A stretch of 64,000 nucleotides of DNA, taken from contig NW_018408629.1 of assembly GCF_002113885.1 (NCBI RefSeq), positions 2,189,971 through 2,253,970 of the forward strand, written 5' to 3'. Position numbers and translations under genes: made by a program. Every line of letters starts with the position of its first letter. The first letter of the stretch is position 1. Below are positions 8,065 through 52,634 of this stretch, piece by piece. Under the pieces are notes generated by a model. It was not told the origin of the DNA and made no database searches. It was given only the letters and a program-made list of their open reading frames with translations. The DNA comes from Mizuhopecten yessoensis. Lineage: Eukaryota.

Positions 8065-8788
8065 AACAAGAGGCCCATGGGCCTTAACGGTCACCTGAGT
8101 CCTACAGTATTTATTTTTATTGTTGAAATATGTACCAATTTGAGTAAAAAATAGTTAAGTATAATGTTAACTTAACTTTGTCAGGACCATGAGCTGATCA
8201 TTCCTAGACCGATTTTAAGTGAGATCGGCCTATTAGAACTTAAATTGTTTTTAAGTTTGAAATAGGTATTTACAAAATAGCGGCCATGGCAGCCAAATTG
8301 TATTTCTGATTGACCCGAAAAATAACAACACTTTGTCAGGACCATGATTCGATCATTCCTACAAAGTTTCAGTTCAATCGGCCAAGTAGAACTTTACTTT
8401 AAGTTTGAAATAGTTTTTCAAAATGGCGGCCGTGGTGGCCATATTGGATTTCTGATCGACCCGAAAAATAACAACACTTTGTCAGGACCATGAGTCGATC
8501 ATTCCTACAAACTTTAAGTTCAATCGGTCCAGCAGAACTTGACTTTAAGTTTGAAATAGGTTTTCAAAATGGCGGCCGTGGCGGCCATATTGGATTTCTG
8601 ATCGACCCGAAAAATAACAACACTTTGTCAGGACCATGAGGCGATCATTCCTACCAACTTTCAGTTCAATCGGCCCAGCAGAACTTGACTTTAAGTTTGA
8701 AATGTAAAATGTTAACGGACGACGGACGACGACGGACGAAAATGGATAGCAATAGGTCACTTGAGCTAAAGCTCAGGTGACCTAAAAA
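8065..8788 (-). mobile_element. HINE copy 2 (same family as 4557-5129, one extra about 146-bp unit)
   Basis: Same termini, hairpin and microsatellite as copy 1; four unit starts instead of three; gives the duplicated spurious [18 protein letters not shown]. Confidence 0.8.
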
Positions 8789-10096
8789 TGCACAAAGATT
8801 GTCAGGTCTTTTGCAAGATCTGCTACCTAACTTTGCAAAAGCATCAATAACAGACTCTCAGCTAAGGAGGTTTTATGAAAATGGTATCTTATTGATGGTT
8901 TTAAGTTGTAAATGCAGAGAATTGTTATTTAAACACAAAACAGAGATTGAAATCAAGAGTATAGTGGCCATTTAAAAATCTGTCTCTACACAACAAAATC
9001 TAGCGTTTTTTGCAGTGTATTTTTTACTCGGCACCTGTAAATATTGACAAAAGGACATTGGATGAAGCTATGCTAAAAATGAGTATTTCTGTTACCGAGG
9101 CCAGTGATATTAAATTTTAGACAGATTTTAAGAAAAAAAACTTGGGAGGGGGGGGGGGGGGGGTAAAATTTTGGATTAAAAAAAAGTTTTTATTAGCATT
9201 TTTGGATGTGGTTTTCACTAGTCGGAAATCAGGGGAAAACAAAATGATTTCTCTAAAATGTTGTAATTACATATGTTTTATGTAATTTATGAATACCTGG
9301 ATGTAGTTTTTATTGTGTGCAGGATGAATATGTTTACTGTATAACAGACCTGCACTTTATTTTAGGATAAGGTAATTTCTACTCTGCACTGCTTAAATCA
9401 CAACTTTGGAGTTTAGTATCTTGAGGCGGACCCTCGTGTCTTGAAGACATCAAGTGTTTCAGCTGACACAATTTCAGGAGGCAATGCAATTCAGGCTTTG
9501 ATGGTGCCTGGGAAATATGAAAACTTTCTACAATCATTCTTGCAAGATTGTAGGTGGAATGTCTTATTATGCATGTTTCTAGTTAATCTGTGTGGTGGTA
9601 TAAGTCTATCCTCTTTAATGATTTTAACATGCCCATTCACAATTTTGTAGAACATTTTAAGGTGTGCATCCTGTCGTCTGACTTCCCGTGATCTCCAGGC
9701 CAGATCCTCCAGCACTGGTTCTACACTGGATCTACTGTTGAACTGGTTGCTGACATAACGTGCACCTCTGTGTTGGACCATTTCTAGATGATAGATATCC
9801 TTTTGATGGTATTGGATCCCAAACAGTTGACGAATATTCTACTATTGGACTTACAAGCGTCTTATAGGCATTTCCTTTTTGCAGGTTTGGAAGCGATGTT
9901 AAGGTTTTGTCTTAGAAATCCTAATATTCTGTTTGCCCACGTGTTAGTCTGTCCACAAATAACATAATGCTGGAGCTTGTGTATTAATAGGCTATGTATA
10001 TGACTGACCTTGGTGAAAGCTTTTGAAAAATCAATTATGCGGACATCAGTCTGCTTCCCCGCTGACATGTTGATAGTGATGTCATCAATGACACTG

Positions 10097-14844: not shown

Positions 14845-17800
14845 ATGGGGAACATTCACACTGTTGGGCCCAGTGAGGCTTTGGTAATTTCAGGTAAGTT
14901 TATAAAAATGTGAAGGTACATTTTCTCATCGTCAACTGGAATGCATAATGGTAATGCCAGAAGACGAAAGTCGGTCAGTTGATGAGATTCCGGCTGACCC
15001 ATCCATGGCTGTATATTTAACATGTTTCTTACCGTGACCTGTGGCAAATAAACATATTTGCAACTTAAAGTTTTATTAGGCATTGCTTATTAATGTCTTA
15101 TTTTATATACATCGTTACTTTTGATCGATTTAACACAGTCGCTGCAGATTCTCTGATGGGACCCAGAGAGGGTGTGTCGACATCGGTATGCGAATCCCTC
15201 ATCTGTAACTGGAAATATGTATCTCGTATTTCACTTATTTGGAGCGATCAAATTTCAGTTGTAAGCTTTCTAGAGTTCTTAAATTATTCGAGGTTAAATA
15301 ATTGGGAAAATACAGTTTTAAATGATATTTTAGCATTAATACTTGCAAGTCACGGGAAAGCAGTTGCGCAATTTTCTTGTTAAATTTCAAAATACTAATC
15401 AAGCCTCTTATCAAGGATGTTAGCCTAAATAGATCGAGCAACGTATATTGTAATGTTGATTACATAACCATTGTGTTTTTATTATGATCAGATAATCATA
15501 TAACTAACAAATAATTATTGTTTAGAAATTATGATTTAATTTTTACATTGAATTTTTCTTATTAAGGAAAAATAAATCAGATTTTTACTGTAACATGCCG
15601 ATGTAATGTTATATAATGATGAGATGTTTTTATTCTGAAAGGTCAACTAACAAGTGAAAAAAACCCCACTTATTTGTGTAAATCTAAACTTAAGTGTACA
15701 GACTACAGTAAACTGCCAAAACTAATTCAATGTGCCTTTAAAAAAAGAATGTACTTCTGTTCATTATTTTTTCAATATCTTTGCCAGGGGTCGAACCTGG
15801 GACCCTGAGTTTATTAGCCTTATGTGTTACGTGATGGTGAGAAAGACATTTTCTCTAGATCTACAACTGTACTAAGCCAGTCAGTAGAAAACAAAACTAG
15901 TATTTAACCAGGGACTGGGTGACATACAAAATAAATATGAAATTACAAATTTAATTATCATTCAATTTTTACTGAACTCTACTGAATTGCAATGCACTTG
16001 TTACATGAATTATTATGAAGAATGCCACTCCAAAAGCATATGGGGCTGCAGTGGCAAAGTGGTAAGGCGTCTTACATTCTGCTACCACTAGCCCTCCACC
16101 ACTGGGTCATTGTCATGAAACCTACGTGGGGCAATCGCCAGGTACTGGCCGTAGGTCAGTGTATTTTTCTCTGGGAACTTCAGCTTTCCTCCACCATCAA
16201 TACCTGGCACATCCTTTCAAATGACCATAGCTGTTAATAGGATGTTAAACACAAACAAACCAAACCAAATGCATATGTTGTTCCCCAAATTATATATATT
16301 CATATATGATTATAATTGAATTTCCAAGATAAAATTGTAATGCCTTAAAAAACAATTATTAAGGTAAAGAAAATGAAAGCATAACAAAAGGAAAATTCAG
16401 AAAAATTCAGTTGCTGTGTATAAATTTTTTATGTGATTGAATTCGTTTTTACAAACTAATTCAATGAAAAATTGTAGAAGGTATTAGTGTGGCTGTGTAG
16501 CAGGTTGGAAAGCTTGGAGTCTCAGGTTCAATCCAAGTTTAAAGCACACTACCTTCTTAGTTTTACAAATGGTGTCTAGATCTGTGGCCCTTGTGATGAT
16601 TTGCTAATTGGGTTGTGATGTTCAAGGCCATGTACACATGAACAAAAAGGGCTTGGAAGATATGGAAGTCTGTCATTGGTTCAGTCGACCCTGGTGGAGA
16701 AACACTTTGACCTGCTGGCTACATGTAGATTTATTCTAAATGAAAATAATCTTGAATGATGAGACTATTTTTACCCATGATGCTTAAATGTTTGTCAAAA
16801 TGTGATGATGAAGTATTAGATTTATCGTGCTTTAAGAAATTGGGCTTGAGCACAAAATCTGAGTTTGAGCATAAGAACGGTTTTAGGAATACAGGCTCTG
16901 ATCTTTGTTGACATATAAATGGTTAGTATACATATGCATGGACAACAATAAAGTGCAGTACATTGTTATTGTACATAAATCATTGTCTTGTGGTATTAAG
17001 ATGACATACTAATACATTTTTGTTATCTCCCCTGTAAACAGGAGGATGCTGGGGGGGGACTGCTCGTAAGATGATTGTCGGCGGCTGGGGTTGGGCCTGG
17101 TGTCTTGTCACAGATGTACAGACGTAAGTATATATACAGTGTATGTGCATCGTAAAACTGAACCAACTCTGTTTTCTCAAAGTTTTCAATCAGTTGTTGA
17201 GTTTGTAATCAAAATATAATTAAGGATAATGGAGTTTGGTAACAAATTATATAAGTCTTAATCATTCAAAGTAATTGATTAGATTCATCCAAGATAAACC
17301 TGGTCCCAGTATTGATCCACATGTGTGTATTTAATTGTTAATTAGTATTTATTGTTTGGAAGTAATGAGTCCAGCCAAACCAGAATTCAACAATTGACCC
17401 TCAAAATTACAGACACTACTGCGACTACAGCATAAATATGTTTGTCACTGGCAATTAATTGTAATCCAGTCCTGATCCTGTACACATCTTATTAATGATT
17501 CCTTACAATTGGTTAATTATAACTTAAATTTTGTATTGCTTGTCCACCTAGTACCATCCTCTCAATACCCAAGGGTAACACTCACTTTCGCTCACTGCAC
17601 CCCTGCAGGAATATGTAAATTGTAATAGAAAAATCAAACACTAGCTATTTGATTGGTTCTGGGTAAAAACTCCTGACCAATTGCTCCTTTCAAGATTACA
17701 GAGAAGCACAACCAGCTTCAAAACCAATCAATTTTACAGTAATGCGACTGAGATTCGTTTAATGTACATCAAAGCACCAAACTAGTCTTCTTATCATATC

Positions 17801-20800
17801 CACCAGGTGGTGCACACTAGTACTGAGCCTTCGATTTTGCTTTGACATGATATTCCAGGTACGCAGAGAGCGAAAGCGAGCGAAACTCCTGGAGTATCGA
17901 GGATGTCATAGTACAAATGTATACCTTGATAAATTACAATAAAAAACCACCAATAACTATGTATTTATGAAATTATGACACTCATACAAAAAATTGAAAT
18001 ATGTTGATCTGTTTTAACCCAGAATCTCCCTGGAGGTAATGACCTTGAACCCTGTGTGTGAGAGCGTGGAGACGTCCGAGGGTGTCCCCGTTACAGTGAC
18101 AGGGGTCGCCCAGTGTAAGATTATGCGGGAGCCAGAGATCCTGAAGACGGCCTGCGAGCAGTTCCTCGGCAAATCTGTCCAGCACATAGAACATGTCATC
18201 CTCCAGACTCTGGAAGGCCATCTCCGTGCTATCTTAGGTAGGTTTTTCTGTAGCCAGACTCTGGAAGGCCATCTCTGTGCTATCTTGGGTAGGGTTTTCT
18301 GTAGCCAGACTCTGGAAGGCCATCTCCGTGCTATCTTAGGTAGGGTTTTCTGTAGTGATTTATAAGAATATGAGCTAGGAAATAGTGTCACTAGGAAATT
18401 CACCATGGATCCTTTAACAAGTACTGAAGTAGTATATATATATATTCTTAATTTATACTAACGTTGTTGCTAGCTTATGCATATTTTACATCTTTAACAT
18501 CCTCAGCAAGGTCCATTTATATTTAAAGGACTCATTCCTAATTGATTTTCTTTTCTTTTCGATTTGCTCCTTTAAAAGTCCTAATTGGAAAATTTAAAAA
18601 CATACAATGTAAATGAGTTCTCAAAACGCGTTATATGTAGGAACTAGGAAGGACAGAATGATCCTGCTGTCTTAAAGATAAGCTTAAATATAAGTCTAAT
18701 GATCCTTCAGATTTCATCATTTCCCAAAACGGTTCTTATGTTGATAATTTTTTCCCCAATTTCATCCCCATAAACCCCTGGTTATAGTGTACATCAAAAA
18801 AAGGAGCCTCACCAGTAATTAACATATTTATTGCCCCAAATTTGAGCAGAGGATTAAGCACAAGTTATATCAACTTATCAACGGCTTTTTCTCTTAATAC
18901 AGTACATATTGATATTTACATGATAACATTTAACAAGGCATATATAGTATATTTTACAATTATTATATTTTACTTAAAATCTGTTGCTGGATTTGATGAA
19001 AAGTTGCATGTGTCTGAATACTTCTGTATTGGTATCTACGGACAGATTTTCATTCCCGAATATAAACGAGTTTATGTTTTAAAATAGCGTAATTTGTGCT
19101 GTATTATAAAGTTTACATTCTAAGAAAAATGACCAACATCCTCACAGGAATGTCCACAAGCGCATGATGGCTTATCAACAATCTTAACACGGAACAAATC
19201 ATTTTTCAAAGAGCTGCACTGATGCCTGAGTTTCGTATGTAATATGTTTAAATTGCGTTCGCCAAAATTATAATAAGATGGTGGAGACGAATTTGCACCA
19301 CTGAATATAGCAGAATTTAAAAGTATTTAACGATGGCAATGTTCTTATTGTATTGTCGAACGAATTCCAAAGACGTAAACTTGATGGCAAAATAAGAAGA
19401 GTTGCTTGAGGAGAGTCTGAAAGAAGAAATATTGTAATCCTATTGGTTCCTTAAATTGTACCGATTCTTGTTAACCACTGTGTTTGGCAAAAGGGCCAAT
19501 AAATAGCTGGGGGTTAAGTTGTTTTTCATTTTATATAAAATATTCAATTTTCGCCTTTTTCTCCTCTCTGATAATGTTTCTAAACCCATTTCAAGATATA
19601 ATGAATCATTACTTGTATAAGAAGGCAGTCCTGTTATAACTCGAGCCGCCTCTCTTTGAGCTTTCTCTTATTTCTCAGATTCCCATAATTCACAGGCATA
19701 TTCAAAAACTGGTAAAATGAAAGATTTACAAATTTTTAAAAGTGAATCTCTTTTCAAGAAGTATTTGAGTTTTCGTAAAACATTAAAACATTAATCTTTT
19801 TCATAACCGAACTATAAACTGCCTCAACATGACTTCCCATTTTCTATTGAATTGAAATTTACTCCTAAATGTCTATGTACGTCTGTAAAATTAAAAAAAT
19901 TTCGCATCAAACATCAAATCCAAGTCGTCGTCAATATCGTTTGCATTTGAAATAAAAAGAACGTCCGTTGTTTTTGAGGATTAAAAGAAACCAACCAACG
20001 TTTAGCCCACTGATTTACAGATTCTAGGTCCTTGTTGAGAACAGTCTGTATTTCATAGCATGAAAATCTGCAAATAACCTGTTGGCCGAATCAAGTACAT
20101 CAGTAATATCATTAATATATATCCAAAAGAGAAGCGGCCCGAGCATTGACCCTTTAGGTACACCTGCGTCAATATTACCTAGTTCCAAAAATGAATTTCT
20201 GATTAAAACTTTCTGTTTGCGCCTTTATAAATAATTTTCGAGCCAATGCAATAGTTCCCCTGAAATTCCGTACGCTTCTAACTTTGCTATCAAGCCCCTG
20301 TGCCAAACACGATCAAACGCCTTTGATATATCACAAATAATAATGCAGGTATGTTTTATTTCTTCTAAAGCAATACAAATATTATGGTAAGTTTCAATAA
20401 GTTGATAAACAGGAGAATGACAAGGCATACAACCTTACTGGTATCGATAAAACAAGCGATTTTCCAAAAAGTAATTATACAAGTGTTTGTAAACTACACG
20501 CTCAAACACTGTACCAACTGTAGATAGTAGGGGTATAGGTCTATAGTTACACGGCGTATGACAATCACCCTTTTCGAAAAGCGGCATAACAGTTGCAAGT
20601 TTCCATTTATTTGAACAACAAACGAAGAAAGTGACATGTTAAAAAGTATTTAAAGTGGTTTGCAGATGGAGTTAATAGCAGTATACTTCAGCACATGATG
20701 ACTAATCCCCTCCCCTCCCTAAGCTTTCCCTAGCTTTAAAACTTGTAAAACATCTTTTATTTTTGAATGATTTAACCGCAAAGATACAAAACGTTTATCT

Positions 20801-34517: not shown

Positions 34518-35220
34518 ATACACAATGGCTTTATTGTTAATTTATTTTATATTTTACAATCATTTTGATCATGATTAGAGTTGTCTCCCTTGAAAAAAAT
34601 CGAGACATTCTGCACGAAGATATTTTTTTTTTTTTTTNNNNNNNNNNNNNNNNNNNNNNNNNNNNNNNNNNNNNNNNNNNNNNNNNNNNNNNNNNNNNNN
34701 NNNNNNNNNNNNNNNNNNNNNNNNNNNNNNNNNNNNNNNNNNNNNNNNNNNNNNNNNNNNNNNNNNNNNNNNNNNNNNNNNNNNNNNNNNNNNNNNNNNN
34801 NNNNNNNNNNNNNNNNNNNNNNNNNNNNNNNNNNNNNNNNNNNNNNNNNNNNNNNNNNNNNNNNNNNNNNNNNNNNNNNNNNNNNNNNNNNNNNNNNNNN
34901 NNNNNNNNNNNNNNNNNNNNNNNNNNNNNNNNNNNNNNNNNNNNNNNNNNNNNNNNNNNNNNNNNNNNNNNNNNNNNNNNNNNNNNNNNNNNNNNNNNNN
35001 NNNNNNNNNNNNNNNNNNNNNNNNNNNNNNNNNNNNNNNNNNNNNNNNNNNNNNNNNNNNNNNNNNNNNNNNNNNNNNNNNNNNNNNNNNNNNNNNNNNN
35101 NNNNNNNNNNNNNNNNNNNNNNNNNNNNNNNNNNNNNNNNNNNNNNNNNNNNNNNNNNNNNNNNNNNNNNNNNNNNNNNNNNNNNNNNNNNNNNNNNNNN
35201 NNNNNNNNNNGAGAGAGAGA

Positions 35221-35260
<40 letters not shown>

Positions 35261-38200
35261 TCTGGGCCAGTAAAATAAAAAAAAAGATTTAAATAAGTTA
35301 ATTAAGAAGAATTATCTAGGAATCGAGGAGAGACGGAGAACATGAAAAATATGAAAAGCTGTTTTTACCTTGGTATTATTTAAATTAAACTTCCGCATAG
35401 TCTAATATTTTCATCCATTTTCTCCATTCTTTCTCAAACCTATCCTGTGCAGAATCACCTTGACTGTTTACAATATATTTTTGAACAGTATAATGTTCTT
35501 TAATCATGTTAACTAAGGCATTTGGGCTCAACGTTTGATGTCGACATCTTGTCTTATAAATATAAAACTTAATAATAATTAAAATTTCATTGTCAATTCT
35601 ATTATATGTCATACTCTCGTTTGCTACCAATAATCCAAAAAGAAAACTGATTTTATTAAATGAAAATGGGATAAAAAGTGCATCTAACAATATTTCAAAA
35701 CTTTGTAAAAAATTCTGTACTTCTCTACATTCCCACAAAATATGAATGATTGTTTCTTGTTCTAAATTACAAAGTGTACAGAGTGGACTTGTCACTAATC
35801 CTACTTTAAACATGGATGAATTTGTTGTCAAAATATGATGAACAATTCTATACTGAAACCATTGTAGTCTTGAATTTTTTGTTATTCTAAAAGGGGTCTT
35901 ATATATATCATTCCAATTAAAATTATTCAAATCCAATTTTTCTTCCCATTTTCTCCTCCCAGAAGCAATAGTATCTTTTTTTACCATAAGATTATAAAAA
36001 TCTTTTATCCCTTTTACTCTTTTTAAGAAAAATTTAATATTACAGGGTATGATAGGGTATACAATAGCATCCTTTTTACAATCAATTTTAACTAAATATT
36101 TCCTTATTGTAGTTAATACACCATGATATTGGATAAAATTTGTATTTACCTGATAAATTTGAGCAAATTCTTGAAATGTGTAAAAAGTGCAAGTCTCAAT
36201 GTCTTTTATTAAGTCATAAATTATAGTCACTCCTTTATTATACCATGTCTTGAAAAATATTGATTTTCCCCCAATAGTAAAATTCCTATTGTACCATAAT
36301 GGCATTTTCCAGATGCAACTTTCATTAATTTGTTTCACCCGCTCCTTTTCATTAAACCTTCTCCATGCTTTAAAGACATCTTTCCAAAAATAATTTGTGC
36401 ACTTATTAAGACATATTGGAATGTAATCACTTCCACAATGAGATAGCATATGTAAGTCAAGATGTGTTTCTAAGATAACTTGCCACTTGCCCGACTTCTG
36501 ATATAATCTCCGTATCCACCCTAATTTTAAGGAATCAATGAATGACCTTATATTAACCATTTTAAGACCTCCTTCAAAATAATTTTGAAATATCACATCT
36601 CTCCTTATTTTATCAGTTTTACTGTTCCATAAAAAGTTAAAGAGAACATTATTTAATTGATTCAAAAAAAGATCATCAGGATTTGGCAATGCAATAAATA
36701 AATGGTTAAATTGTGATATCATTAAAGATTTTATCAGATGGATTCTACCTATAGGAGTAAGTGATCTTCTGTTCCATGCCATGATAAGTGCTTTAAGTTT
36801 AATTAATTTTTTATCAAAATTTAATTTTGGGATTTCATGAAGATTGACACTAAATTCTATTCCCAGAAGCATGAATTTTGTCCTACCCCACTGCAATTTT
36901 AGATCAGGTAAAAATGTATCTTCACTATGTATTTTGCTCCCTATCCAAACCACCTGGGTTTTGTCTATATTTATCTTCAAACCAGATATTTTAGCGAAAG
37001 TATTCAATTCTGCTATCGACTCTTTTAAAGACCTTTCTGAACCATCTAAAATGAGAGAAGTATCATCAGCATACTGAGAAATAAGGATTGGACTTTTATT
37101 GACTTCTATACCCTTAATCTTATTGTTATTTCTAAGTCTTATGCCTAGTATTTCAACACACAAAATAAAAATGTAGGGGGCGATTGGATCACCTTGGCGA
37201 CAGCCTCTTTTTATGTTTAGAAATGATGAAAGATTACCACCTTGGTTTATAGTTGAACTTACATTGGTGTGCAGTAGTTTTATCCAGCATCTAATATCAG
37301 AACCAAAATTAAAATAATTTAAAACTTTATCAACAAATTCCCATGAGACTGAGTCGAATGCTTTCTCAAAATCTACCATTAATAACATACCTGGAATATA
37401 TCTTTCTTCTGCATATTGCATAATGTCATAAACTAATCTAGTATTTTCCCCTATATAACGGCCTGAAAGAAATCCTGTTTGATCTTCACTAATTAATTTA
37501 TCTAAAACTGTTCTAATTCTACCTGCTATCGATCCAGACGCTATTTTATAGACTATATTCAATAATGTTATGGGTCGCCAATTTTTTATGAACTGCCTAG
37601 GTTTATCTCCCTTGGGAATACATGTTATAATACCTTGCCTTTGTGTTACTGATAGCAAACCTTTCCTATACCCACAATTTATAGATCTAACAATGAACCC
37701 ACCTAGCTGTTTCCAGAAACACTTAAAAAATTCTACAGTAAACCCATCAGAACCGGGACTTTTGTTATTTTTCATATTTTTCAAAGTTTTTGTTGCTTCA
37801 TCTAAAGTAATTAACCCTTCTAGACCAAAAGAATCGTTATTTTCTAATTTTGAAACATCACATGTATTCAAAAAATCTGCTAAATCTATATCATCAATAT
37901 CAGTATTATTATCATATAACTTTTCATAAAATAAACGAACTTCTTCTAAAATTTCATTCTGTTGTGTAATAATAACATTATCATCTTTCTGTATCTTTGG
38001 TATAATCTTGGAAGTATAATTCCTATTTTCTAACTTGAAAAAATAATTTGTTGGCTTTTCTCCTTCCTCTTGCCATCTTGCCCTAGATCTAATTATACTA
38101 CCTCTTACCTTCCTCAACCTAATATTTTCCAATTCCCTTTTCTTAATTTCTAAATCTTCTATGTCTACATGTTCCTGCTCTTCAATAGTTTGTATTTTTC

Positions 38201-41200
38201 TCTTAAGATCATCTTCCTCCCTACTTTGCTGTTTCTTTCTATAAGATGAATAAGATATACTTTTACCTCTGATTTCCATTAATAATGTTTCAAGAAAAAG
38301 CTGGTCATCAATTACAAATTCTATTTCTGTATCTGGTATATTCATTATAGCATTCAGATTATACACTGGCAAAGAGTACTGAGTTTTTGTTTCTAAAATA
38401 ATATTTTTCACCATTTGATGATATTCTTCCTCATATAAAAGAGATGAATTAAATTTCCACAATCCCTTTCCCCGCTTGAATTCATTCAATTTTAAAACAA
38501 AAAAAATATCAAAAATATCAAAACTAATATGATGGGTAGGTATTCAGCCAGATGTTATGTATTAAATATAAGCAATACTATTCAAACATTTTCAACGTAT
38601 AAACGTTTCAAACTACGATCTAAATTGATAAATGTTAAAATGGGCAGCATTTACTCTTAGCCTTTTCCCAGACAGATAATATCAAATTTCTTAAGGTACT
38701 TTTTTGCAGACATTTGTCTTGCACTATTCCAATGTATTTGACTAAATGTTTTTTGTAAACAGTGGTTATAAGCATTAGTACCGTAATGTAGTTAAATAAA
38801 TTACAAACTCCACGTGTTACGCGCTCTATGCTCATGGAATATGTCATAGAAAAATGAAGGCACGCTGCAAGCTATTTAATTGGTTTTAGGTTGACAATTA
38901 CCCTGACCAATCGCAAGGCTGATAACTATTATTTGAAGATTACGAAGGAGCGACAACCGACTTTAAAGACAGTCAATGTTTTAGTGATGTACATCAAGTC
39001 TTGTCTTATCCACAAGGAGGCACACACTGGCCCTTCGTAATTGCCATGACATATTTCAGGGATTTAGAGAGCGTAAGTAAAACGCCGTTCCCGGATTTTG
39101 TGAAAGGGGATGTCTATGGGAAATACAGTTGGGGGAGGGGTCATGATCCCTAGTAGACCTCCTAAATACACCATTTATACGTATTTGATTTTGCAGGTAA
39201 AATTAAGAGGGAACTTGGTATATCTTTATTTGATGTCAAAAATACTAGTGTTAGCATAATGTATTTCATATCTTTATGCTGTTCCCATTAAATCAATTAT
39301 TATATATTAAGATCTAATCATTTTCAGTTTTATAAATAGTCTCGATATCATAATTAAATTATACCTTCTTCGCCGCGAGATGGTTTAGCATATAATGCAT
39401 TAAGCGGGAAACCAGGTTCTCCTGGAATAGGATACTTCTTCAATCCTAGGGTATGCATCTCTTTATGGCCCTGTTTCTGCGATGTACACTAGGAGTAAAG
39501 ATGTAAATTATTTGACTCCGTTAATAACTTATTCTGACGTTGTAAGACACAATCAAATACTTAGCATACTGTTAAACATGTCTCAGAACCTCATCATTTT
39601 TGATGGTTTAATCAATTGTATATACGCAACGTATTTCACATTAACATTGCCACTCAATCAGGATATCATACACATGACATTCAACATAAAAAAATGCACT
39701 TATATATAGGATCATTATATTCTTACATGAGTTTCATATCATATATGAGATTTATGAAACGAGTCTGGCGAGCTTAAATGAAAAATTCGTGACGAGTTTC
39801 ATGAAAACGAGTGTAAGATCCTTTTGATCATATAATCAAGATTTGGATTAGTGGCCTTGACACCAGACTTAGACATTTTGACAGTATGGTGCCCCCAAAC
39901 CCGACATCTATCTGTCAAAATGTCTCCCCACAACAAACATCTATCTGTCAAAATATCTCTCCACAACCGACATCTATCTTGGTCAAAATGTCTCTCCACA
40001 TTAGACATCTATCTCTCAAAATATCATTCCACAACAAACATCTATCTCTGTCAAAATGTCTCCCCACAACAAACATCTATCTGTCAAAATATCTCTCCAC
40101 AACCGACATCTATCTTGGTCAAAATGTCTCCACATTAGACATCTATCTCTCAAAATATCATTCCACAACAAACATCTATCTCTGTCAAAATGTCTACCCA
40201 CAACAAACATCTATCTCTGTCAAAATGTCTACCCACAACAAACATCTATCTCTGTCAAAATGTCTACCCACAACAAACATCTATCTCTGTCAAAATGTCT
40301 ACCCACAACAAACATCTATCTCTGTCAAAATGTCTACCCACAACAAACATCTATCTCTGTCAAAATGTCTACCCACAACAAACATCTATCTCTGTCAAAA
40401 TGTCTACCCACAACAAACATCTATCTCTGTCAAAATGTCGAAGTCTGATATCAGGGATAAAGGAAACAGAAGATAGCTTATCAAATACCAGCGGATGTCT
40501 CGATCTAGCAAACGTTGCTTGTCTGAGTAATATAGTAATTAACAAGCTGAATAATTATCAATTATACATACCTTTTGTAATTTCTTAATACATTCGGATA
40601 TGAATAATGTTATGTAGATCAGAGTACGATCCGCTTCGCTCTGCAAAACAACAGCAGTATAATGTTGATAAAAACATTTCTAATATTTTCTTTGTGCTTC
40701 TTGTCTAATTTTATGTTTAAATAAGGGCAAGCTTAGTATAAATATTTTATGAGACCAACGCCTGATACTTTAACGTCAATATCAAACATTAGCACAACGT
40801 AATAGCAGATAAATTAGGATTCAGAAAGATCTCATAATAAAAAAATCGTTGCAGATTTACTGTAATTATAATTAAGGTATATTCTCGGTATTATATGTTT
40901 TACAATATTTGAAGACATTTCACATGACATGGACTTTCCTCTTGGTATGAAAAGGAGTTTTGTATACTAACTATTTTAAAGATGAAGTTGATATTTCTCA
41001 CCTTTATTTCGTAGTTCTTGAAGAAAATATTGGATTTAAAGTAGTATATTCCCTCGTCCACTATATCAAAATCACTAGCTGAAAAAAAGAAGACACGCGA
41101 GAAGAGTAAATATCATGCTAGACAAGGACTTTCTGAAATGTTAGAGAATTCACCAAAATGTCACTTGTATAGATATTTAGTAAATACCATATCATTACAA

Positions 41201-42630
41201 CATTATCTATGTAAATATATACCCAAGAAACATAGAATTGCACTTACAAAGATACGTTTGTCTGCACATACATTGCATATTGAAACAGGACGATATAGAA
41301 ATATTGTAAGGAATGAATGCTATTGTAAAATATGTAAGTCTGTAGATATAGAGGACGAATATCATTTTTTGCTTATTTGTCCTATATACCAAGAGCTCAG
41401 ATCAAAGTGTGTAAAAATGTATTACTGACCAGGTTTAGCAAATATATATATGATGCCACTTAATTGAGGAAGACTATGATATAATGACATTTAAATGTGT
41501 CAAATCTTTTGTCCATTCTCCACTGCGTTTTGCAGTGTCTGCCAATGTATTTATATTGTTACATGTACACTGATGAGCTGGAAAGCTTAAAGTTAATAAA
41601 GAATGTAAATATGATATTCAAACATTAATGCAAAATGTTCGTAATTAGCCATAAAGGTTACTCATTTCTTGTGACATGGATACTTCAGTGAATAATCGAG
41701 GGCGTAAGGCACACACGACATTTAAATTGATATCAAGTTATATGCGATCAATTCAATACAATGAAATTGGCAGTTATGCGGGGGATGTAGCATTATATTC
41801 TTGCTTAAATATAAAAAAAAATGGGTTGAGAATGAAAATCGGAATATTTAGTCGATTGCTTGTCTCTATACTTTAAATCTTGCATGGTAGTCCTCCCTGG
41901 AGTGACGTCACAGTCCGGATCTGTTTTACGTCCTTGTTTATATGGAGAGGGATCAATTTTGTTCTGTGCTAATGGATTTATTATTCATAAATATACATAT
42001 GTGCAAATAATACCGCTTGTACACATTTTTCATTAGATATTACCGTCAGCATATTTCATTGTCTAAGAGATAATCAAAGTGAACATATTTTTAAAAGACT
42101 AATATTGCTTTTATATCGCTTAAATATAAGCGTTGTTTGTCCTCTCTGTCACTAATAAAGCTCTTTGGTGAAGAAATAGTTTTGTTTCAGAGAGTAAGGC
42201 ACATTTGCCCCAACTTAAGGTCATTTTGGCCATACTTCCACTGTTCCAGATAGCCTAGTTTGAAAATTGTCTGGGGCAGTAATTTTTAAAACTATTTTTC
42301 TCGCTCATAGGACACTGTTTTAATGATCGAAAGACTAAATATGGATGTTACACACATACATTGAGGAAGAACTATAAAGAGTTTCAGTACTTCTATTGTT
42401 CGAGAAAGCTTCAATTTACACAAATTACATTACGATGTTATTTTTTACAAAAAATCTCAATCATAAATCAATTGAATATTTATTATGTACTTACATTGAT
42501 GAAAAATGTATCATTTTATTTACAGAAATAATATAGGCACTTTTTTCATGGCGGCAGGTCACTTCTTTTAAAATTGTTCAATATGTTGAAGGGTTGAAGG
42601 TACCCTGGTTGGAAAAGTTATTGCGGTAAT

Positions 42631-44295: not shown

Positions 44296-45452
44296 TGTTG
44301 AAACGTCCCCTTGTGATCCGCCCCTTAGACTTTTGACATCCAGTCAAGTGTAGTTATAAACATCCGTGTATGAACTGATAAGTGTGGATACGTCACTGGC
44401 TAGGCTCTCGTGTTAATACTGACTAGCTATACACCGTTATCATTACTGTTAGTTTGGTATACAGACGCATTGTTAACTTTCACGTAGTTCTGATCGATTA
44501 GATAATTCTGAAATGGGAGGATTTTTAAAAGTTTTCAGAAACAGATACAACGATCATTAACTTAGTTAATTAGGATATAACAAATTGCTATTTTGATTTA
44601 TCAACCAAAACATCCCTTGCGTTTTCTTTACATATGTCATCAAAGTGTATGTAAATCCGTTAATCAAATGCAAATTTGGTGAAACTGGGGCAAAATATGA
44701 ACTTACGAGGTATTTATAGGCAACCTGTGATAGGCAAAATGTGGTATACGTGTATTTATTTGCCTTTACCAGAATAAATATGATTAACCCTTGGACATTT
44801 GAGAATAAACTTTTTCTGCTTTATCGACAACACCGGTCATTTAAGTACAGGTCAAATTCTAGTTATATTGTCACGCTATCAAAGTAAGATCGGGGAAGAG
44901 GCGACACCAAATGGCATAGCGACCACTTTGCCCGTCTCTGGAAAAAAATGTGAAGTAATTAAGCTTGTCTGTCAACTATTGGCATCAATATCGGAAATCG
45001 TGATATTCGGAGCAAGCCCATGACATGGAAAAGGAAGCATTTCATATATTTTTGGTAGACGCTGAATCTGTTGTCCAATCAGTTACATATCAAGGGGCCA
45101 GCTGTACAACGAACATTAATAAGCTTAATCACTGTTTAATTAACAACCTATAATAATTTGGTCTATATACAAGGTAAAAACTCGTAATTTTGCATGTTAT
45201 TTTACTGTGCTACACTATTGCTATCTAGCAAATTTTTTACTTAGTTTGTGGTTGTGTTTTATAGAAAAATAAAAAATGAACTTGCGCTAACCACCGATTG
45301 AGTTGATTGATCACGTTTGAACAACCGGGCCCAGGTTTCACCTATTCTGCAAGTAAGGTTATATTTTACGTTAACTTTGCCCTTAGACACCTCATCGTCG
45401 ATATCCAGGGGTTACGTTCACGTTCGCTCTCTACACCCCTAGACTATGTCAA

Positions 45453-45664
45453 AGCAATGTTGAAGGCACGAAGATAGCTGTTTGATTGGTCTCAGGTAAA
45501 AACAACTGACCAATCGCTAGGCTGATACGTATACATGTCCTTTGAAGATTACAAAGAAGAGGCGTCCGACTTCAAAGCCTGTCAATTTTTACCGTTACGT
45601 GACCGCGAGATTATTTTGATGTATATCAAAGGATCGAACTAGTCTTTTGGTCTCATTATCAAGG
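45453..45664 (+). repeat. 212-bp direct repeat, left copy (LINE target-site duplication)
   Basis: agcaatgttgaagg...ctcattatcaagg, no mismatch seen versus 50875-51086. Confidence 0.95.
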
Positions 45665-45667
45665 GAG

Positions 45668-45678
45668 CAACATGGCGG
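45668..45678 (+). promoter_or_regulatory. YY1-like motif CAACATGGCGG at the LINE 5' end (candidate internal Pol II promoter)
   Basis: Positions +4 to +14 of the element; matches the CAANATGGCG YY1 consensus. Confidence 0.5.
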
Positions 45679-46115
45679 CGTTGGGTTAGAAGCGTATGAA
45701 GGAGCTCCGGTAATTTATCCTGAGAATGCCTCTCTAGTAACCCCGGAAAGTCCCCAATATTGGACTGTGTGACGGTGAGATCATTTCTAACATAATGATA
45801 ACATTATTTTGAAAAAATATTTTGAAATATCCCCTTTGCGGACCATAATAGCATTCATTACCTGTATACCTGAGGTACACACATGTACCTGAACGATACC
45901 TGTGTTGCACGTGCAGACTACTATACTCACCTATGTGACATGTATGTTAGTACTGGAGTTACACCCTGGAAAGCTGTGGTTTATTTATGAACGTTTATTC
46001 GTACATGTACATATACATGTTCATCTTTTTGTATAATACGGATTTTAATGTGCGTTTACTGTGTAAGAACGGTAAACTAACCAGTATGACCTTGAACTGT
46101 GTGCACGTGTAGCCC

Positions 46116-47213
46116 ATGGGTAAGAAACGTAATAGATCTCATACGGACACGAGTACTGTAATGGCTATGGCACATAGAGATCTCTATGGTACCCCACATG
46201 GTAATGTGGCCGCCACGCAACCATGTTTCCAACCTGCCCCGCAGTACCCGCAGTACCCTATGCAAAGCTCGTGTATACCCCCCAGTTCTCCTGCGAATCC
46301 TCAGTTGATGTTCCCTCAGGCAACCTCGCCTACTCCTGACACCATTTCCCCACACTTCAGTGATCAAATTCTTCGAGACATATTTCAACGGTTAACTAAG
46401 CTGGATACACTGGATCAAATCATGTCTAGACTCAGTGTCATCGAGGGCAAGTTTAGCAGTATGGAGAGTTCGTTATCAGGCGTTAAACGTGAACTTAAAA
46501 CACACAGTGAACAGCTCGAGGGTGCGGATTTCGACCATTCCATTCTTGAAGAGAGAGTCAGCAAAGTGGAACTTGAACGGGAGGAGGTACGGGAAGAAAA
46601 TCGCCTACTGAAAGATCAAATACTCGAGATCCAAACACGATCGATGAAGGACAACCTGTTATTTGGAGGAATCCCAGATGTTGACCGTGATGAAGACACC
46701 GAGGCTGTTGTGAAGGAATTCATCAAGACGGAACTCGGTATTGAAGAGGAAATGCAGCTTCATGTTGCCCATAGGCTGAGGAAAAGATCCGATAATAAAC
46801 CTAGGTCCATAGTAGCTAAATTCTCTAGCAGAAAAGATAGAGACAAAGTGTTGAAGGCTGCCCCAAAACTAGCGGGGAAAAGAGAATTCTCTGTATTTGA
46901 GCAATTCCCGCCGGAAATAAATGACAGGCGACGTTTACTCTATCCGGTGTTTAAGGAAGCCAAGAGGCATGGAAGGCACGCTCGCCTGCTAGGTGATAAA
47001 CTCTACATTGACGGTAACCTTTACATCCCACCTCAGCATCATCATCCTAGTCATCCTCCCATAGGCCGAGATCATCCTCCTGATTCTCGCAGAGGACCTG
47101 GATGGCACTCATCGGCCCAAGGACGGCAGACAGCCACGCCCCCTAGTGGTCAGCATCAGTTCCGTAATGCTCGTCACGTGCCAAACCCCCGCAATGACAG
47201 TCGCCCCATGTAG
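46116..47213 (+). CDS. LINE ORF1p, L1-type (coiled coil + RRM + CTD), 365 aa
   Basis: Heptad coil LTKLDTLDQIMSRLSVIE..., RSMKDNLLFGGIPD, AHRL...KPRSIVAKF, VFEQFPPEINDRRRLLYP...DKLYIDG. Confidence 0.88.
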   Translation: MGKKRNRSHTDTSTVMAMAHRDLYGTPHGNVAATQPCFQPAPQYPQYPMQSSCIPPSSPANPQLMFPQATSPTPDTISPHFSDQILRDIFQRLTKLDTLDQIMSRLSVIEGKFSSMESSLSGVKRELKTHSEQLEGADFDHSILEERVSKVELEREEVREENRLLKDQILEIQTRSMKDNLLFGGIPDVDRDEDTEAVVKEFIKTELGIEEEMQLHVAHRLRKRSDNKPRSIVAKFSSRKDRDKVLKAAPKLAGKREFSVFEQFPPEINDRRRLLYPVFKEAKRHGRHARLLGDKLYIDGNLYIPPQHHHPSHPPIGRDHPPDSRRGPGWHSSAQGRQTATPPSGQHQFRNARHVPNPRNDSRPM

Positions 47214-50200
47214 GGAGACGCGACAAGAGGTCAACCCCGTGACATTGATAAAGACACTATCAAGTTTACTTTCCTTAATGTTTGCGGTATTAAGTCTAAG
47301 ATACTTTTGCCTGAGTTTGAAGACTTAATCCTAGCACATGACATACTTATTTTTGCAGAGAGCAAGATTGATAATCTGGATCATTTACAACTACCGCCTG
47401 ACTATGAATATTTTGCTAAATGTAGAACTAATGCATATAAAAAATCTGGTGGTATAGTAATTATTTTTAAGAAAACTCTCAAGTCGATGTTGACTTTTCC
47501 TAAAACTTTATCAGAATATGTATTGTGGGTAAATTTTTCAAAACACGTTGTGAACTCTGATCTAGATTTTCTACTGGGATGTGTTTATATACCTCCCGAA
47601 AATACTAAGTATGCATCCCCGGAAGCGTTCAATGAAATTGAAAGGGAGATGATAGAATTATCCCATCATGGTAACAAAGTCGCCATAGTCGGAGATTTTA
47701 ATGCTAAAACCCAAGTTAGAGATGATTTTGTAGAACCAGATGATAACTTCATTCGTTCATTAAACTTAGATGAAAATGATGAGCTATACTCATATCTCTA
47801 TGATATTGAAAAGTTGAAATTATATAATGTTCCTCTGCGAAGGGCTAGTCAATGTAAAGCTAAAGTTAATAATTATGGCAATAAATTGCTTGACTTCTGC
47901 AAGCAAAATAATATGTATATTGCCAATGGTCGGATTGGAAATGATGCACAAATAGGTAAAACTACATGTAGTGATGTCAGCGTTATAGATTATCTATTGC
48001 TGTCGTCAGATATGTTTCGGTATACAACAGATTTTGAAATCAAAGTTTTTGACCCACTCATATCAGATGTCCACTGTAGACTTGTATTTAGCCTTTGTAA
48101 ATTAACTGATGAATGTATATATAATACCGAATGTCATGAAAATCGATATACAAAGTGGAAATCCTGTAAAGAACAAGATTTTGTAAAACATATACTAGAT
48201 GATGAAAGAGGTAATCTCCATAGAATTAATGATAAATTAAATGAATTATTAAATAAACAACACGACAATGTAACCAATAACGAAATTAATGACATTGTAA
48301 ACTCAATTAGTGAATTGTTCAAAGGCTCTGCTAAGCAGGTTTTTGGTAGTAACAATGCTTACAGGAAACGGAGGTTGAGATGTGATAATAAACCTTGGTT
48401 TAATAGGGAATGCCACTTAAACAGAGTTGAATTTAATAAAGCCAAGGCCTTATTTCACAAAGTAAATAATCCTATAAATAAAACTAATCTCAATAGAGCT
48501 AGTAAAGTTTATAGAAAAACATTGAATAAAAATTACAGAAATTATCAGGAGAAATTGTCAAGCGAGTTAAGAAATACTGCTAGAATGGATTCAAAAAAAT
48601 TCTGGAATATTTTGAATAAATGTGACGGATCTGTAAAGAAAGGTAATGCTGATATATGTATTACTGAATTATATGAATACTTTAAGGATCTGAACAAGTC
48701 TGTTTATGATGATGACGATTTTGAGCTGGAAAATCCTGATAATAGTATTTTTGATGATTATCTGAATGGTGAAATTACCACTGATGAAATTAAATTTTCT
48801 TTAATCAATTTGAAGAATAGTAAAGCCTCTGGTATAGATCAAATCCTAAATGAATATCTAAAAAGTACAATGGATGTATTTTTACCAATTTATCAAAAAA
48901 TATTTAACCTTATTCTGAATACTGCGTCTATACCAGATGTGTGGAAGATCGGTATTATAAAACCAGTATATAAAAACAAAGGCGATCCAAAAGATCCGGA
49001 TAATTATAGAGCGATCACTTTAGTCTCGTGCCTTGGCAAAGTTTTCACTTCGGTTATTAATAATCGTTTAAATAAAATTTCTGACGAATTTGACCTGATA
49101 AGCAGTGCACAAGCTGGGTTTAGAAAGGGTCATTCTACAACCGATAACATGTTTGTATTGTATTCTTTAATCTCAATATATTTTTCATTAGGAAAAAAAC
49201 TTTATTGTACGTTCATCGATTTTAGTAAGGCGTTCGATTCTGTATGGAGAGTTGGTCTGTGGAAAAAGCTCCAAAAAAGCAACATTACTGGAAAAATTTT
49301 CAATATTATTTATAAGCTATATGATAAAACCAAATCATGTGTTAAAAATGGATGTGAACAGTCGGATTTGTTCAATTGTGAGATCGGTTTAAAACAGGGC
49401 GAAAATTTATCGCCATTTTTGTTTGCAATTTATTTAAATGATTTAGAAACTTATCTTGTTGAAAAAAATGTAAATTGTCTTCAAACAATAGACAAATTAT
49501 GTATTGATAACATTGGAGTGTATCTCAAACTATTCATTATCTTATATGCCGATGATACTGTCCTGTTTTCAGAAACACCAGATGGTTTACAGTTAGCTTT
49601 AAATGAATTTGAACAATACTGTAATACTTGGAAGTTAACTATCAATTCAGGAAAAACTAAAATTGTCATCTTTTCAAAAAGAAAATGTGCAAGAACTCCC
49701 CATTTTACATTATGTAACGTAGAATTAGAAATACTGGAAGGGTATACCTATCTAGGATTATTCTTTAATTTTAGTTGTAGCTTCTTTAAAGCAAGGAAAA
49801 AAATTGTTGAACAAGCACAGAAATCAGTGTTTGCTGTCTATAAGAAATTGAGAAACATATCTTTACCAGTTGATCTACAATTGAAGATATTTGATTCATT
49901 AATTATGCCAGTTCTTCTCTATTCATCAGAAATATGGGGTTTTGAAAACACAAATATTATAGAAAAAATCCATCTTCAATTTTGTAAATATATACTAAAT
50001 GTAAGAAAAAGTACACCAAATTTCATTGTTTATGGTGAGCTTGGAAGATACCCACTAGACATCGAAATTAAATGTAGAATAATAGTATTCTGGCATAAGT
50101 TGATTACCTCTAGTAAGTTATCAAGTACTATTTATAAGCTTATGTATACATTACATGAAAATGGAACTATGTTATTTAAATGGCTCGCATATGTTAAAGA

Positions 50201-50726
50201 TATTTTTTCTCAAACTGGCCTGAACTATGTGTGGTACTATCAATCTACATGTTCTTTTTCAAAAGACGAAATTAAGAGGCTTGTGAAAAGTAGACTGAAG
50301 GATCAATTTATACAGAAATGGTTTGATAATATTCTTAACTCCTCTAGAGGACAAACATATTCAATATTAAAGACAAAGTTTGAACAAGAAAAATATTTAA
50401 TTAAACTTAATACAAATGATAGGAAAATAATGTGTAAATTCCGTTCTTGCAATATGCATTTACCCATAGAAAAAGGAAGATGGTTAGGTATTCCTCGTCA
50501 AGAAAGAACCTGTACATTATGTAATTTGTACATTGGAGATGAATTTCATTACTTATTTATATGTGAAAGTGTTTTAGTTAAATGTCTAAGAGAGAAATAT
50601 ATACCAAAATATTATTTCACTTATCCAAGTCAATTAAAAATGCAAGGATTGTTTAATATATTTAATGTAAAAATTCACACAAAACTTTGTAAATTCATAG
50701 AAAAGCTTGAAAAAATATTAACTTAA
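47214..50726 (+). CDS. LINE ORF2p (APE endonuclease + reverse transcriptase + C-terminal Cys/His motif), open from the codon after the ORF1 stop
   Basis: TIKFTFLNVCGIKSK, IFAESK, VYIPP, VGDFNA, IDY, SDVH; KASGIDQI, NYRAITL, DFSKAFD, QGENLSP, LYADD; IEKGRW...CTLC...DEFHYLFIC. No internal stops. Confidence 0.93.
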   Translation, partial: GDATRGQPRDIDKDTIKFTFLNVCGIKSKILLPEFEDLILAHDILIFAESKIDNLDHLQLPPDYEYFAKCRTNAYKKSGGIVIIFKKTLKSMLTFPKTLSEYVLWVNFSKHVVNSDLDFLLGCVYIPPENTKYASPEAFNEIEREMIELSHHGNKVAIVGDFNAKTQVRDDFVEPDDNFIRSLNLDENDELYSYLYDIEKLKLYNVPLRRASQCKAKVNNYGNKLLDFCKQNNMYIANGRIGNDAQIGKTTCSDVSVIDYLLLSSDMFRYTTDFEIKVFDPLISDVHCRLVFSLCKLTDECIYNTECHENRYTKWKSCKEQDFVKHILDDERGNLHRINDKLNELLNKQHDNVTNNEINDIVNSISELFKGSAKQVFGSNNAYRKRRLRCDNKPWFNRECHLNRVEFNKAKALFHKVNNPINKTNLNRASKVYRKTLNKNYRNYQEKLSSELRNTARMDSKKFWNILNKCDGSVKKGNADICITELYEYFKDLNKSVYDDDDFELENPDNSIFDDYLNGEITTDEIKFSLINLKNSKASGIDQILNEYLKSTMDVFLPIYQKIFNLILNTASIPDVWKIGIIKPVYKNKGDPKDPDNYRAITLVSCLGKVFTSVINNRLNKISDEFDLISSAQAGFRKGHSTTDNMFVLYSLISIYFSLGKKLYCTFIDFSKAFDSVWRVGLWKKLQKSNITGKIFNIIYKLYDKTKSCVKNGCEQSDLFNCEIGLKQGENLSPFLFAIYLNDLETYLVEKNVNCLQTIDKLCIDNIGVYLKLFIILYADDTVLFSETPDGLQLALNEFEQYCNTWKLTINSGKTKIVIFSKRKCARTPHFTLCNVELEILEGYTYLGLFFNFSCSFFKARKKIVEQAQKSVFAVYKKLRNISLPVDLQLKIFDSLIMPVLLYSSEIWGFENTNIIEKIHLQFCKYILNVRKSTPNFIVYGELGRYPLDIEIKCRIIVFWHKLITSSKLSSTIYKLMYTLHENGTMLFKWLAYVKDIFSQTGLNYVWYYQSTCSFSKDEIKRLVKSRLKDQFIQKWFDNILNSSRGQTYSILKTKFEQEKYLIKLNTNDRKIMCKFRSCNMHLPIEKGRWLGIPRQERTCTLCNLYIGDEFHYLFICESVLVKCLREKYIPKYYFTYPSQLKMQGLFNIFNVKIHTKLCKFIEKLEKILT

Positions 50727-50874
50727 TTTCTGTACTATTTGTGTACTTCTATATGTATCTATGCTATGTACAATGTTGTAATTGTGTACATCACACGCCA
50801 TGTATCATACTTACTATATGTATGTGACCTCTTGTTACACACGTAAGTGTGTCGGAGTGAATAAATAAAAACTT

Positions 50875-51086
50875 AGCAATGTTGAAGGCACGAAGATAGC
50901 TGTTTGATTGGTCTCAGGTAAAAACAACTGACCAATCGCTAGGCTGATACGTATACATGTCCTTTGAAGATTACAAAGAAGAGGCGTCCGACTTCAAAGC
51001 CTGTCAATTTTTACCGTTACGTGACCGCGAGATTATTTTGATGTATATCAAAGGATCGAACTAGTCTTTTGGTCTCATTATCAAGG
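50875..51086 (+). repeat. 212-bp direct repeat, right copy (LINE target-site duplication)
   Basis: No mismatch seen versus 45453-45664; followed by tggcgcacactgag, the continuation seen in uninterrupted MITE copies. Confidence 0.95.
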
Positions 51087-52634
51087 TGGCGCACACTGAG
51101 CCAACAATTTTGCTATGACATATTCTAGGGGTGCAGAGAGCGAAAGTGAGCGTAACCCCTGGATATCGAGGATGCCGTAAGTTACATCCTTGACAATGAA
51201 GCGTCTGTCATGATTTATTCACTACTTTTTAGGTTGTTGGTGTTCAAATACTTTATTATTCCTCAATATGACGTTGGTACAGAATCTGCATAGTTGTAAT
51301 GAATTCATAAGTTCGCCCTCATTAAAAGGCGTGAAATCTCTTTGCGGCGAATATTTTCCAGTATACAGCATTTAGCATGGTATTGTTAATAAAAAAACAA
51401 GAACAATATCAAAAATAGTTATATCATATTTAATAATACTCCTTTTTAACTTATAAAAGCATTAATACATAGTATATCTTAATAGATGGAAGAATGTAAC
51501 CTTACATATTTAAATGGTTCATAACTCATTCTCTCAATATGGATACATACATGTTTTTATCTCATTCCGAGACAATTAAGTACTGATAATTTTAAAAGAT
51601 TTGTTTTAACATGTTTCCTGTAAAGAATATTATTAAGAAAGTGTACAAAATTTCAGATCAAAATCAAACGACATCTGGTCTAGAGATTCTCTTTCTTCTC
51701 ATGAATAAGAAACTGATCACTAAAATACAAAAACATTTAGTCATGTTTTTACAAATAATTTTCAAAATTTGAATTTGACAACTGAGTTTCACATATAATT
51801 AAAAATGTAATGAAATACAATACAATTAGTTGGACTCTAAACATAAACCTTGTGATAGCTTACAGCCACTGGATTACATTGGAGAGACATTTTCTTTATT
51901 AATGGTACAGATTCCAGGTAGTTTCCCGTGGCTGGTTTCTCTTCTATGTAACATACTGCTATAATAGAATTTGTACAAACAGGTGTGTATAGCACATATA
52001 CCGGTATATGTTATAAATAAATATTGAAAACAAATCAGACCTACGATGTCAAAATGCACCCATTTCAATTAAAAAAAAAAGAAATTCTACCATAATTTAG
52101 CTGTAAAAAATATCAGATCAAATTTATGATTGCACATGTGTCAATTTTAAAATGACATTATACCATTATTTCTAAGTGAAAAAAAATATCAGATCAAATT
52201 TGGAAATAAAGTAAGCTTAATTAATATTCTTCAAAGGAGATTTTGAAAACATGAAAATGTGTTTTTTGGTACATTGAAATTCCTACATTGCAGATACCTT
52301 GGATAAATAGTTACATATACAGACAATTTCAAAGAAAATATAGACTTTGTTCATTCTCCTTGAATATATTGAATGATATAAATAAGCTTGAATTATATTT
52401 GTCAGATAAAATGGAAAGAAAAAATACATCAAACATGTATATCATATGACATCATACATACATGTTCTAGTATGTCACATGCATTTAAACAATTGATGAT
52501 TTACTTCAGAAATCTCCCAAAATCCTTAACAGCGAATACATCATTGATAGAATTTCAGTGTATTCTCTGTATGGTTTCTGAAATGTGTATCCTTCTTGTT
52601 ATGATAATATTTAATAAATCTAAGTAAATGTCTA

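Follow-up and report, generated by a model that had tools for sequence, protein, structure and literature searches.

A 212-bp target-site duplication around a full-length RTE-X LINE in the scallop Mizuhopecten yessoensis, and a candidate UAG readthrough junction in the same element

What kind of event leaves a long interspersed nuclear element (LINE) between two identical copies of 212 bp, and does such a length belong to the single event or to the element's family? The question is raised by a locus of the scallop Mizuhopecten yessoensis, in a stretch of 64,000 nt (assembly GCF_002113885.1, contig NW_018408629.1, positions 2,189,971 to 2,253,970, forward strand; hereafter the window, to which all positions refer). 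LINEs with an apurinic/apyrimidinic endonuclease (APE) usually give target-site duplications (TSDs) of 10-20 bp (PMC6895275). The original prediction, made from the letters of the DNA, had described a mismatch-free repeat abutting a full-length LINE, duplicated from the interior of a miniature inverted-repeat transposable element (MITE) that uninterrupted copies hold once. Direct comparison bears this out: 45453-45664 and 50875-51086 differ at 0 of 212 positions, the pair abuts the element at either end, and the match cannot be extended by a single base to the left or right (the longest direct repeat expected by chance in a window of this size is ~17 nt). The 5,210 bp that separate the copies contain a first open reading frame (ORF1) and an open frame for APE and reverse transcriptase (RT). 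When the element and one repeat copy are removed in silico, a single MITE of ~360 bp with inverted ends of 65-75 bp (45393-45467 and 51100-51174) is left. Two uninterrupted MITE copies in the window each align to the 212 bp once: 17562-17905 with 137 of 185 identical columns (score 191, second-best 46), and 38820-39081 with 139 of 192 (score 182, second-best 40).

The repeat is a TSD and not a long terminal repeat (LTR). Its copies share rare variants of the MITE (see below), its sequence is MITE interior, and the best structure matches of the element are L1 and R2 proteins. That the 212 bp could be part of the element, as an LTR-like or transduced terminal repeat, is suggested only by their being a perfect terminal direct repeat, and we regard this as scarcely credible: the repeat is collinear with the MITE interior and completes one MITE once the element is removed; the curated consensus of the element's family, M.yessoensis_4 (5,209 nt), is too short to hold it; and the 5' flank of another copy does not align to it. 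The last point comes from a contig (run X9, record 26) that covers 45673-47693 and at 45673 exits into 453 nt not aligning to the window, so that at least one other family copy has a different 5' flank.

The family was assigned through its RT, which by eye is identical over ~230 aa to the row M.yessoensis_4_LINE in the RT alignment of Martelossi et al. 2023 (PMC10294476). In that paper, M.yessoensis_4 belongs to the RTE-X clade of the RTE superfamily and has 28 RT members; the 6 other motif-sharing rows that were checked are all RTE-X as well. In other words, the LINE family is already catalogued, and the RTE/RTE-X placement given by the original prediction stands; it rests on the published tree, trees built here having had no labelled references. 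The consensus begins at 45668, at most 3 nt from the start of our copy (the comparison covered its first 400 letters, with its 3' end outside), and because consensus length and start match the element, we consider the copy to be full length, again as predicted. Among named proteins, the closest matches come from bivalves, those of ORF1 from scallops.

For the origin of the two repeat copies, we analyzed depth, variants and contigs from 4 sequencing runs from 4 studies, assembled as short contigs; what we say of contigs holds among those listed. The MITE interior has a depth of ~2,000-3,800x single-copy, and at a number of sites most of this depth carries a base other than that of the window: 99.5-100% at 45562/50984, 97.8-99.4% at 45458-45459, and 92-99.8% at 51069/51071/51079. 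At all of these sites, both repeat copies carry the rare letter (4 of 4 runs), and rare MITE letters sit 6-20 nt from both junctions. Independent MITEs would not agree at rare-variant sites, and both copies therefore come from one MITE site. This also bears on the alternative of an assembly join, or of recombination between two LINE-in-MITE insertions at two loci or alleles, which we consider improbable. The assembly is indeed scaffolded and has an N gap of estimated size at 34638-35210, LINE and MITE are both multi-copy, the MITE has no TSD of its own, and neither junction is spanned by any contig listed; however, two MITE copies should differ at the rare-variant sites and none do, our LINE copy is alone in its letter at 50676, which is matched neither by the contigs of any of the 4 runs nor by a second annotated copy, and the LINE would have had to insert twice, into near-identical MITEs. 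Two of these points also count directly against a single duplication event, namely that the 4 runs, with short contigs only, gave no junction-spanning contig among those listed, and that the MITE at 45393-51174 has no visible TSD of its own; a third is that no empty allele of the locus was seen among the listed reads and contigs. Contigs of the unique left flank enter the left end of the MITE (to 45488 in 2 of 4 runs, to 45427 in 1), contigs of the unique flank exit its right end in 4 of 4 runs, and at 51174 each run has 279-395 contigs that depart from the window. As for the MITE itself, the copy at 17560-17905 has a candidate 9-bp TSD (7 of 9 positions match), and no autonomous partner was found in the portion of the published library text examined.

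The data support a recent insertion, as had been proposed. With 0 differences over 212 bp, the divergence between the repeat copies is bounded at ~1.4%; the second annotated copy of M.yessoensis_4, which lies on a different scaffold, has a single difference in 1,079 residues; and the element contigs listed from the 4 runs differ at 0-2 letters, with one exception that has 10. Summed contig depth rises in all 4 runs from ~18-27x the flank near the 5' end to 85-119x at 50676, a measure that should not be read as a copy number. The pattern is that of a young family in which many copies are 5'-truncated. In two RNA runs, 0.61-0.68 of the sequence words are present, which is not an expression measure.

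How could such a long duplication have arisen? We think that it was probably, if by no wide measure of confidence, a one-off distal second nick during target-primed reverse transcription, and from the product we infer the order of nicks and the steps as follows. A bottom-strand nick at MITE position 60/61 would prime cDNA synthesis; no nearby second nick would form, and the 212-bp duplex would be unwound or displaced; the top strand would then break 212 nt downstream, at 272/273, through a nick already present, an end left by replication or repair, or late cutting by the endonuclease; and this end would prime the second strand, after which filling of both gaps would give the two 212-bp copies. 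For the second-strand cut by LINEs in general, there is no settled mechanism (PMC6895275). The 'Tn-TA' signature of Bov-B was considered for the first nick and is absent there. At the second, the target beyond the cut (CAAGGTGGCG) and the 5' end of the element (CAACATGGCG) are alike in 8 of 10 letters (51080-51095 and 45657-45680); this likeness is not used directly by the junction and may be due to chance.

The original prediction had also raised the possibility that the foldback MITE guided second-strand cleavage; a wider form of this is that it guided both cuts, as a cruciform or hairpin target. As single-stranded DNA, the empty MITE can form a long stem (-84.7 kcal/mol, with no shuffle control), and the first cut lies inside the inverted repeat. 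The cuts are, however, asymmetric, position 61 pairing with 300 and the second cut being at 272/273, and with assumed copy numbers and genome size 0.1-0.9 family copies are expected in such abundant MITEs by chance. Guidance by the MITE is therefore not needed, and we find it very improbable; the MITE was likely a bystander of the insertion.

A further alternative is that long duplications are a trait of M.yessoensis_4, whose second cut would routinely fall ~150-250 bp away, for example at nucleosome or lagging-strand (Okazaki-sized) spacing. We hold this to be possible and no better than tentative. In its favor, the sole full-length copy seen has a long TSD, and family-level long TSDs are documented for R9 (126 bp) and Dualen-4b (median 900 bp; both discussed below). 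Such a trait could also have been overlooked, because at least one TSD pipeline looks at 10-49 nt only (PMC13295347) and the curators of M.yessoensis_4 required no TSDs for LINEs. On the other side, a single length cannot show periodicity, and the related copies examined have no long TSD. We compared 27 copies on host-animal contigs inside public metagenome-assembled genomes (MAGs), setting each 5' boundary against family mates. These copies come from other animals, have ~26-43% RT identity where measured and, with few exceptions, are 5'-truncated; 14 fall outside the group of RTE-X-like rows, two represent one event, and several ends are ill-defined. None of the 27 has an anchored repeat longer than ~22 bp (the clearest are 18 and 15 bp), while the same routine recovered the 212-bp repeat of the window. 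Long TSDs were seen in 0 of the 13 RTE-X-like copies, which have no TSD or one of a few nt only, and in 0 of the 14 others. Where a paralogous empty site was available, it revealed a duplication of a few nt (L058) or a loss of a few nt (L111).

A few candidates were set aside in this comparison. The ~200-bp repeat at L058 is not a second long TSD; it is the end of an older local duplication of ~1.9 kb with the LINE in its second copy, and L111 was rejected as a long TSD in the same situation. The 27-bp repeat at L069 was rejected as a TSD as it is not located at the tail, and L034 was left unscored as it sits in a 46-bp minisatellite. Full-length relatives on short collapsed contigs had no flanking repeat; they were not counted, their flanks perhaps deriving from different copies. 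Scans for further relatives returned 5 short metagenome loci, the best 80 of 111 genome-contig loci and 1 viral-contig locus, none of them M.yessoensis_4, and a DNA pattern scan with the 3' end gave 0 matches. Within the window, a truncated LINE fragment had been put forward as a related copy with a short TSD. Its candidate 11-bp repeat exists (41106-41116 / 41605-41615, 10 of 11 identical); the fragment is not a family mate, and the comparison is uninformative because it belongs to a different family (30% protein identity, no DNA match).

By these sequence comparisons, long TSDs are not an RTE-X-wide feature. Two considerations nevertheless weigh against a one-off event: the TSD length of M.yessoensis_4 is known from one copy (n=1), and the 27 comparison copies are too remote and too truncated to exclude a family trait. 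The excerpt of PMC10294476 reports neither a TSD length nor an ORF1-ORF2 junction for M.yessoensis_4, and none of the papers listed by our literature search reports a long TSD in LINEs of RTE-X or of bivalves.

A TSD of ~212 bp has precedent, at about ten times the usual length. Human L1 usually makes TSDs of 5-30 bp; those >100 bp account for up to 10% of insertions in HeLa cells and for 57-91% in lines deficient in nucleotide excision repair, for which a distal nick was proposed (Servant et al., PMC5223499). L1 is thus, like our element, an APE LINE with an occasional TSD of >100 bp and a distal nick as proposed cause; unlike it, L1 is of another clade and the events are from cultured cells, whereas ours was found in the genome of a mollusc. 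A TSD of >100 bp (126 bp, cited second-hand in PMC9977147 and PMC6895275) likewise flanks R9, a non-LTR element of bdelloid rotifers, but R9 is rDNA-specific with a set length, whereas the scallop element encodes an APE and gives no hint of being site-specific. Dualen-4b_cRei of Chlamydomonas resembles our case in the long duplications that flank its new insertions, there of variable length (median 900 bp, more than half of insertions), and they are ascribed to a restriction-like endonuclease (RLE) plus APE (PMC9977147). In our element (n=1), by contrast, Pfam gave APE and RT alone, although no search aimed at an RLE was made. R9, too, has an RLE. A case of similar length may be RTE-1 of Caenorhabditis elegans, an APE element of the RTE superfamily with a TSD that is reportedly ~200 bp, which would also speak for a family trait; it differs in belonging to the RTE clade and in having a first ORF of at most 43 aa, where our RTE-X element has a 365-aa L1-type ORF1. 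Among the precedents that the original prediction had named, R9 could be confirmed second-hand, and the sporadic L1 cases and the far longer Dualen duplications had been missed. As L1 does so occasionally, a lone long TSD adds little. If other M.yessoensis_4 copies do have long TSDs, the family would be a rare natural model, missed by pipelines limited to ~50 nt, and a source of small duplications.

The element has a second property that, in our assessment, is more novel than its long TSD, and that has no demonstrated link to it. ORF1 terminates at a TAG (47211-47213), and ORF2 follows in the same frame with this single stop between them. A profile of 13 ORF1 homologues matches the L1 ORF1p structures 2ykp (E 1.5e-5), 2yko and 2w7a, and Pfam gave weak coiled-coil matches and nothing else for ORF1. 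For ORF2, Pfam matched RVT_1 (E 3e-37) and Exo_endo_phos (E 4.5e-6), with the RT at aa 592-825 and a CCHC-like motif at aa 1100-1117. The first Met of ORF2 is aa 92, ~77 codons inside the endonuclease, and gene models starting from this Met, here 1,079 aa long, drop the front of that domain.

We surveyed this junction in 52 RTE-X-like elements with a scorable endonuclease start, including that of the window (among them L007-L013, L017-L020, L115-L133 and others), all <80% identical mutually and forming 21 clusters at 40% identity; most lie on contigs of two MAGs from a single sample series, and related elements do not count as independent. An upstream in-frame ORF of at least 150 aa across one stop was present in 43 of the 52, spread over 14 of the 21 clusters, and 38 of these 43 ORFs match the ORF1 profile. 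The stop was TAG in 43 of 43, and the next base was G in 37 of 43. Among the stop-free spacers there were 21 distinct lengths, ranging from 5 to 543 codons. A Met before the endonuclease was absent in 37/43 elements with this arrangement versus 1/7 without it (Fisher p 4e-4; two apparently broken elements were excluded from the latter group). As a control, the ORF2 ends of the same elements were TAA in 22, TGA in 7 and TAG in 4, with G at +1 in 3 of 33. In a comparison LINE group from the same contigs (L155-L174, on host contigs in MAGs G006 and G007), all 17 elements with an upstream ORF (20 examined) instead have ORF1 and ORF2 overlapping, with ORF2 in the -1 frame. Each of the 15 sequences printed from this group has TTT TTT close to where the ORF2 frame opens, which looks like a conserved -1 frameshift site.

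On the strength of these alignments, we predict that ORF2 is made as an ORF1-ORF2 fusion by readthrough of the ORF1 UAG, which we find rather likely, and with similar confidence we put forward RTE-X LINEs across animals as candidates for producing their enzyme as a Gag-Pol-like fusion through programmed UAG readthrough. UAG-G is the context of type III readthrough (PMC3159437), and readthrough was suggested, from consensus sequences only, for group 3 LINEs of Paramecium (PMC5405496). As in those LINEs and in gag-pol of murine leukemia virus, a structural and an enzyme gene lie in one frame across one stop; as in gag-pol, the UAG is followed by G, and the relatives here are G-rich at +7 to +15. 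Gag-pol has a 3' pseudoknot; here, folding of nested local pairs detected no excess structure. Non-AUG reinitiation at ORF2 is the main rival, and it is familiar from L1; there is, however, no obvious need in such a scheme for one frame and one particular stop codon. Readthrough would, for its part, be better matched by other results than some we obtained: the mean folding z-score 3' of the TAG was ~0 over 43 junctions and +1.3 for the window (nested local folds only, a test that modelled neither pseudoknots nor long-range pairs), the window has no G-run at +10 to +12, and no natural fused ORF1-ORF2 protein was present among 8,000 candidates, the last being weak evidence. The term readthrough does not occur in the excerpted main text of PMC10294476; the literature search here covered TSDs, not readthrough. 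The in-frame UAG bears on how ORF2 is translated in the bivalve-rich RTE-X clade.

That both properties hold in full, with M.yessoensis_4 currently active and routinely duplicating about a nucleosome or Okazaki length of target and with UAG readthrough clade-wide in RTE-X, is a candidate reading that we consider rather unlikely. If both were true, the system would be a natural one for the placement of the second-strand cut of LINEs, together with clade-wide recoding in animal LINEs. The features of the locus are collected in Table 1.

Table 1. Coordinates of the LINE, its target duplication and the MITE copies in the window.
Feature	Position	Strand	Basis
Host MITE, left end (most of the left inverted repeat, which reaches ~45467)	45393..45452	.	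Sequence comparison
Left target-duplication copy (MITE positions 61-272)	45453..45664	+	Identity; rare variants common to right copy
Full-length RTE-X LINE, 5,210 bp, family M.yessoensis_4	45665..50874	+	RT row, consensus
5' untranslated region (UTR), begins with CAACATGGCGG motif	45665..46115	+	Sequence; ATGGCGG-like motifs near relatives' 5' ends
ORF1, 365 aa, coiled coil and L1-type RNA recognition motif/C-terminal domain (type II ORF1)	46116..47213	+	Profile match to L1 ORF1p structures
Lone in-frame TAG between ORF1 and ORF2, then G; candidate readthrough site	47211..47213	+	
ORF2 frame, 1,170 codons: APE endonuclease, RT, C-terminal CCHC-like motif	47214..50726	+	
3' UTR, terminates in AATAAATAAAAACTT; without poly(A), without repeated microsatellite	50727..50874	+	Sequence
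Right target-duplication copy	50875..51086	+	Identity; rare variants
Host MITE, right end (inverted repeat 51100-51174)	51087..51174	.	Sequence comparison; contig exits
Diverged uninterrupted MITE copy, 212-bp segment once	17562..17905	.	Alignment
Second diverged MITE copy, 212-bp segment once	38820..39081	.	Alignment

At the ends of the element, the CAACATGGCGG motif may resemble a YY1 site, and ATGGCGG motifs similar to it lie near the 5' ends of relatives. The 3' UTR contains AATAAA, and 50860-50874 has no repeated unit, though many relatives have a microsatellite tail.

The window holds several other repeats. A second LINE lies at 35388-38543 (minus strand), adjoining the N gap, with an open frame of 1,052 codons that contains RT plus zf-RVT; we take it to be L1/Tx1-like. 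Fragments of two other LINE families are found at 19584-20605 (minus strand) and 41057-41604 (plus strand). A block of ~150-bp units occurs twice, at 4557-5130 and 8065-8789 (3.5 kb apart, 92-96% identical), and a tandem array of ~68-bp units lies at 39895-40439.

The contigs of the relatives gave observations of their own. Six species-representative MAGs (G001, G002, G004, G006, G007 and G010) contain eukaryotic LINE-bearing contigs (L006-L085), the longest of 2.8 Mb in G002; animal hosts are their most likely source. The protein search showed host LINE proteins filed under bacterial names. Lastly, a single contig carries the same 5'-truncated LINE insertion six times (L087-L092), five times with a common 5' flank, which suggests a segmentally multiplied unit.

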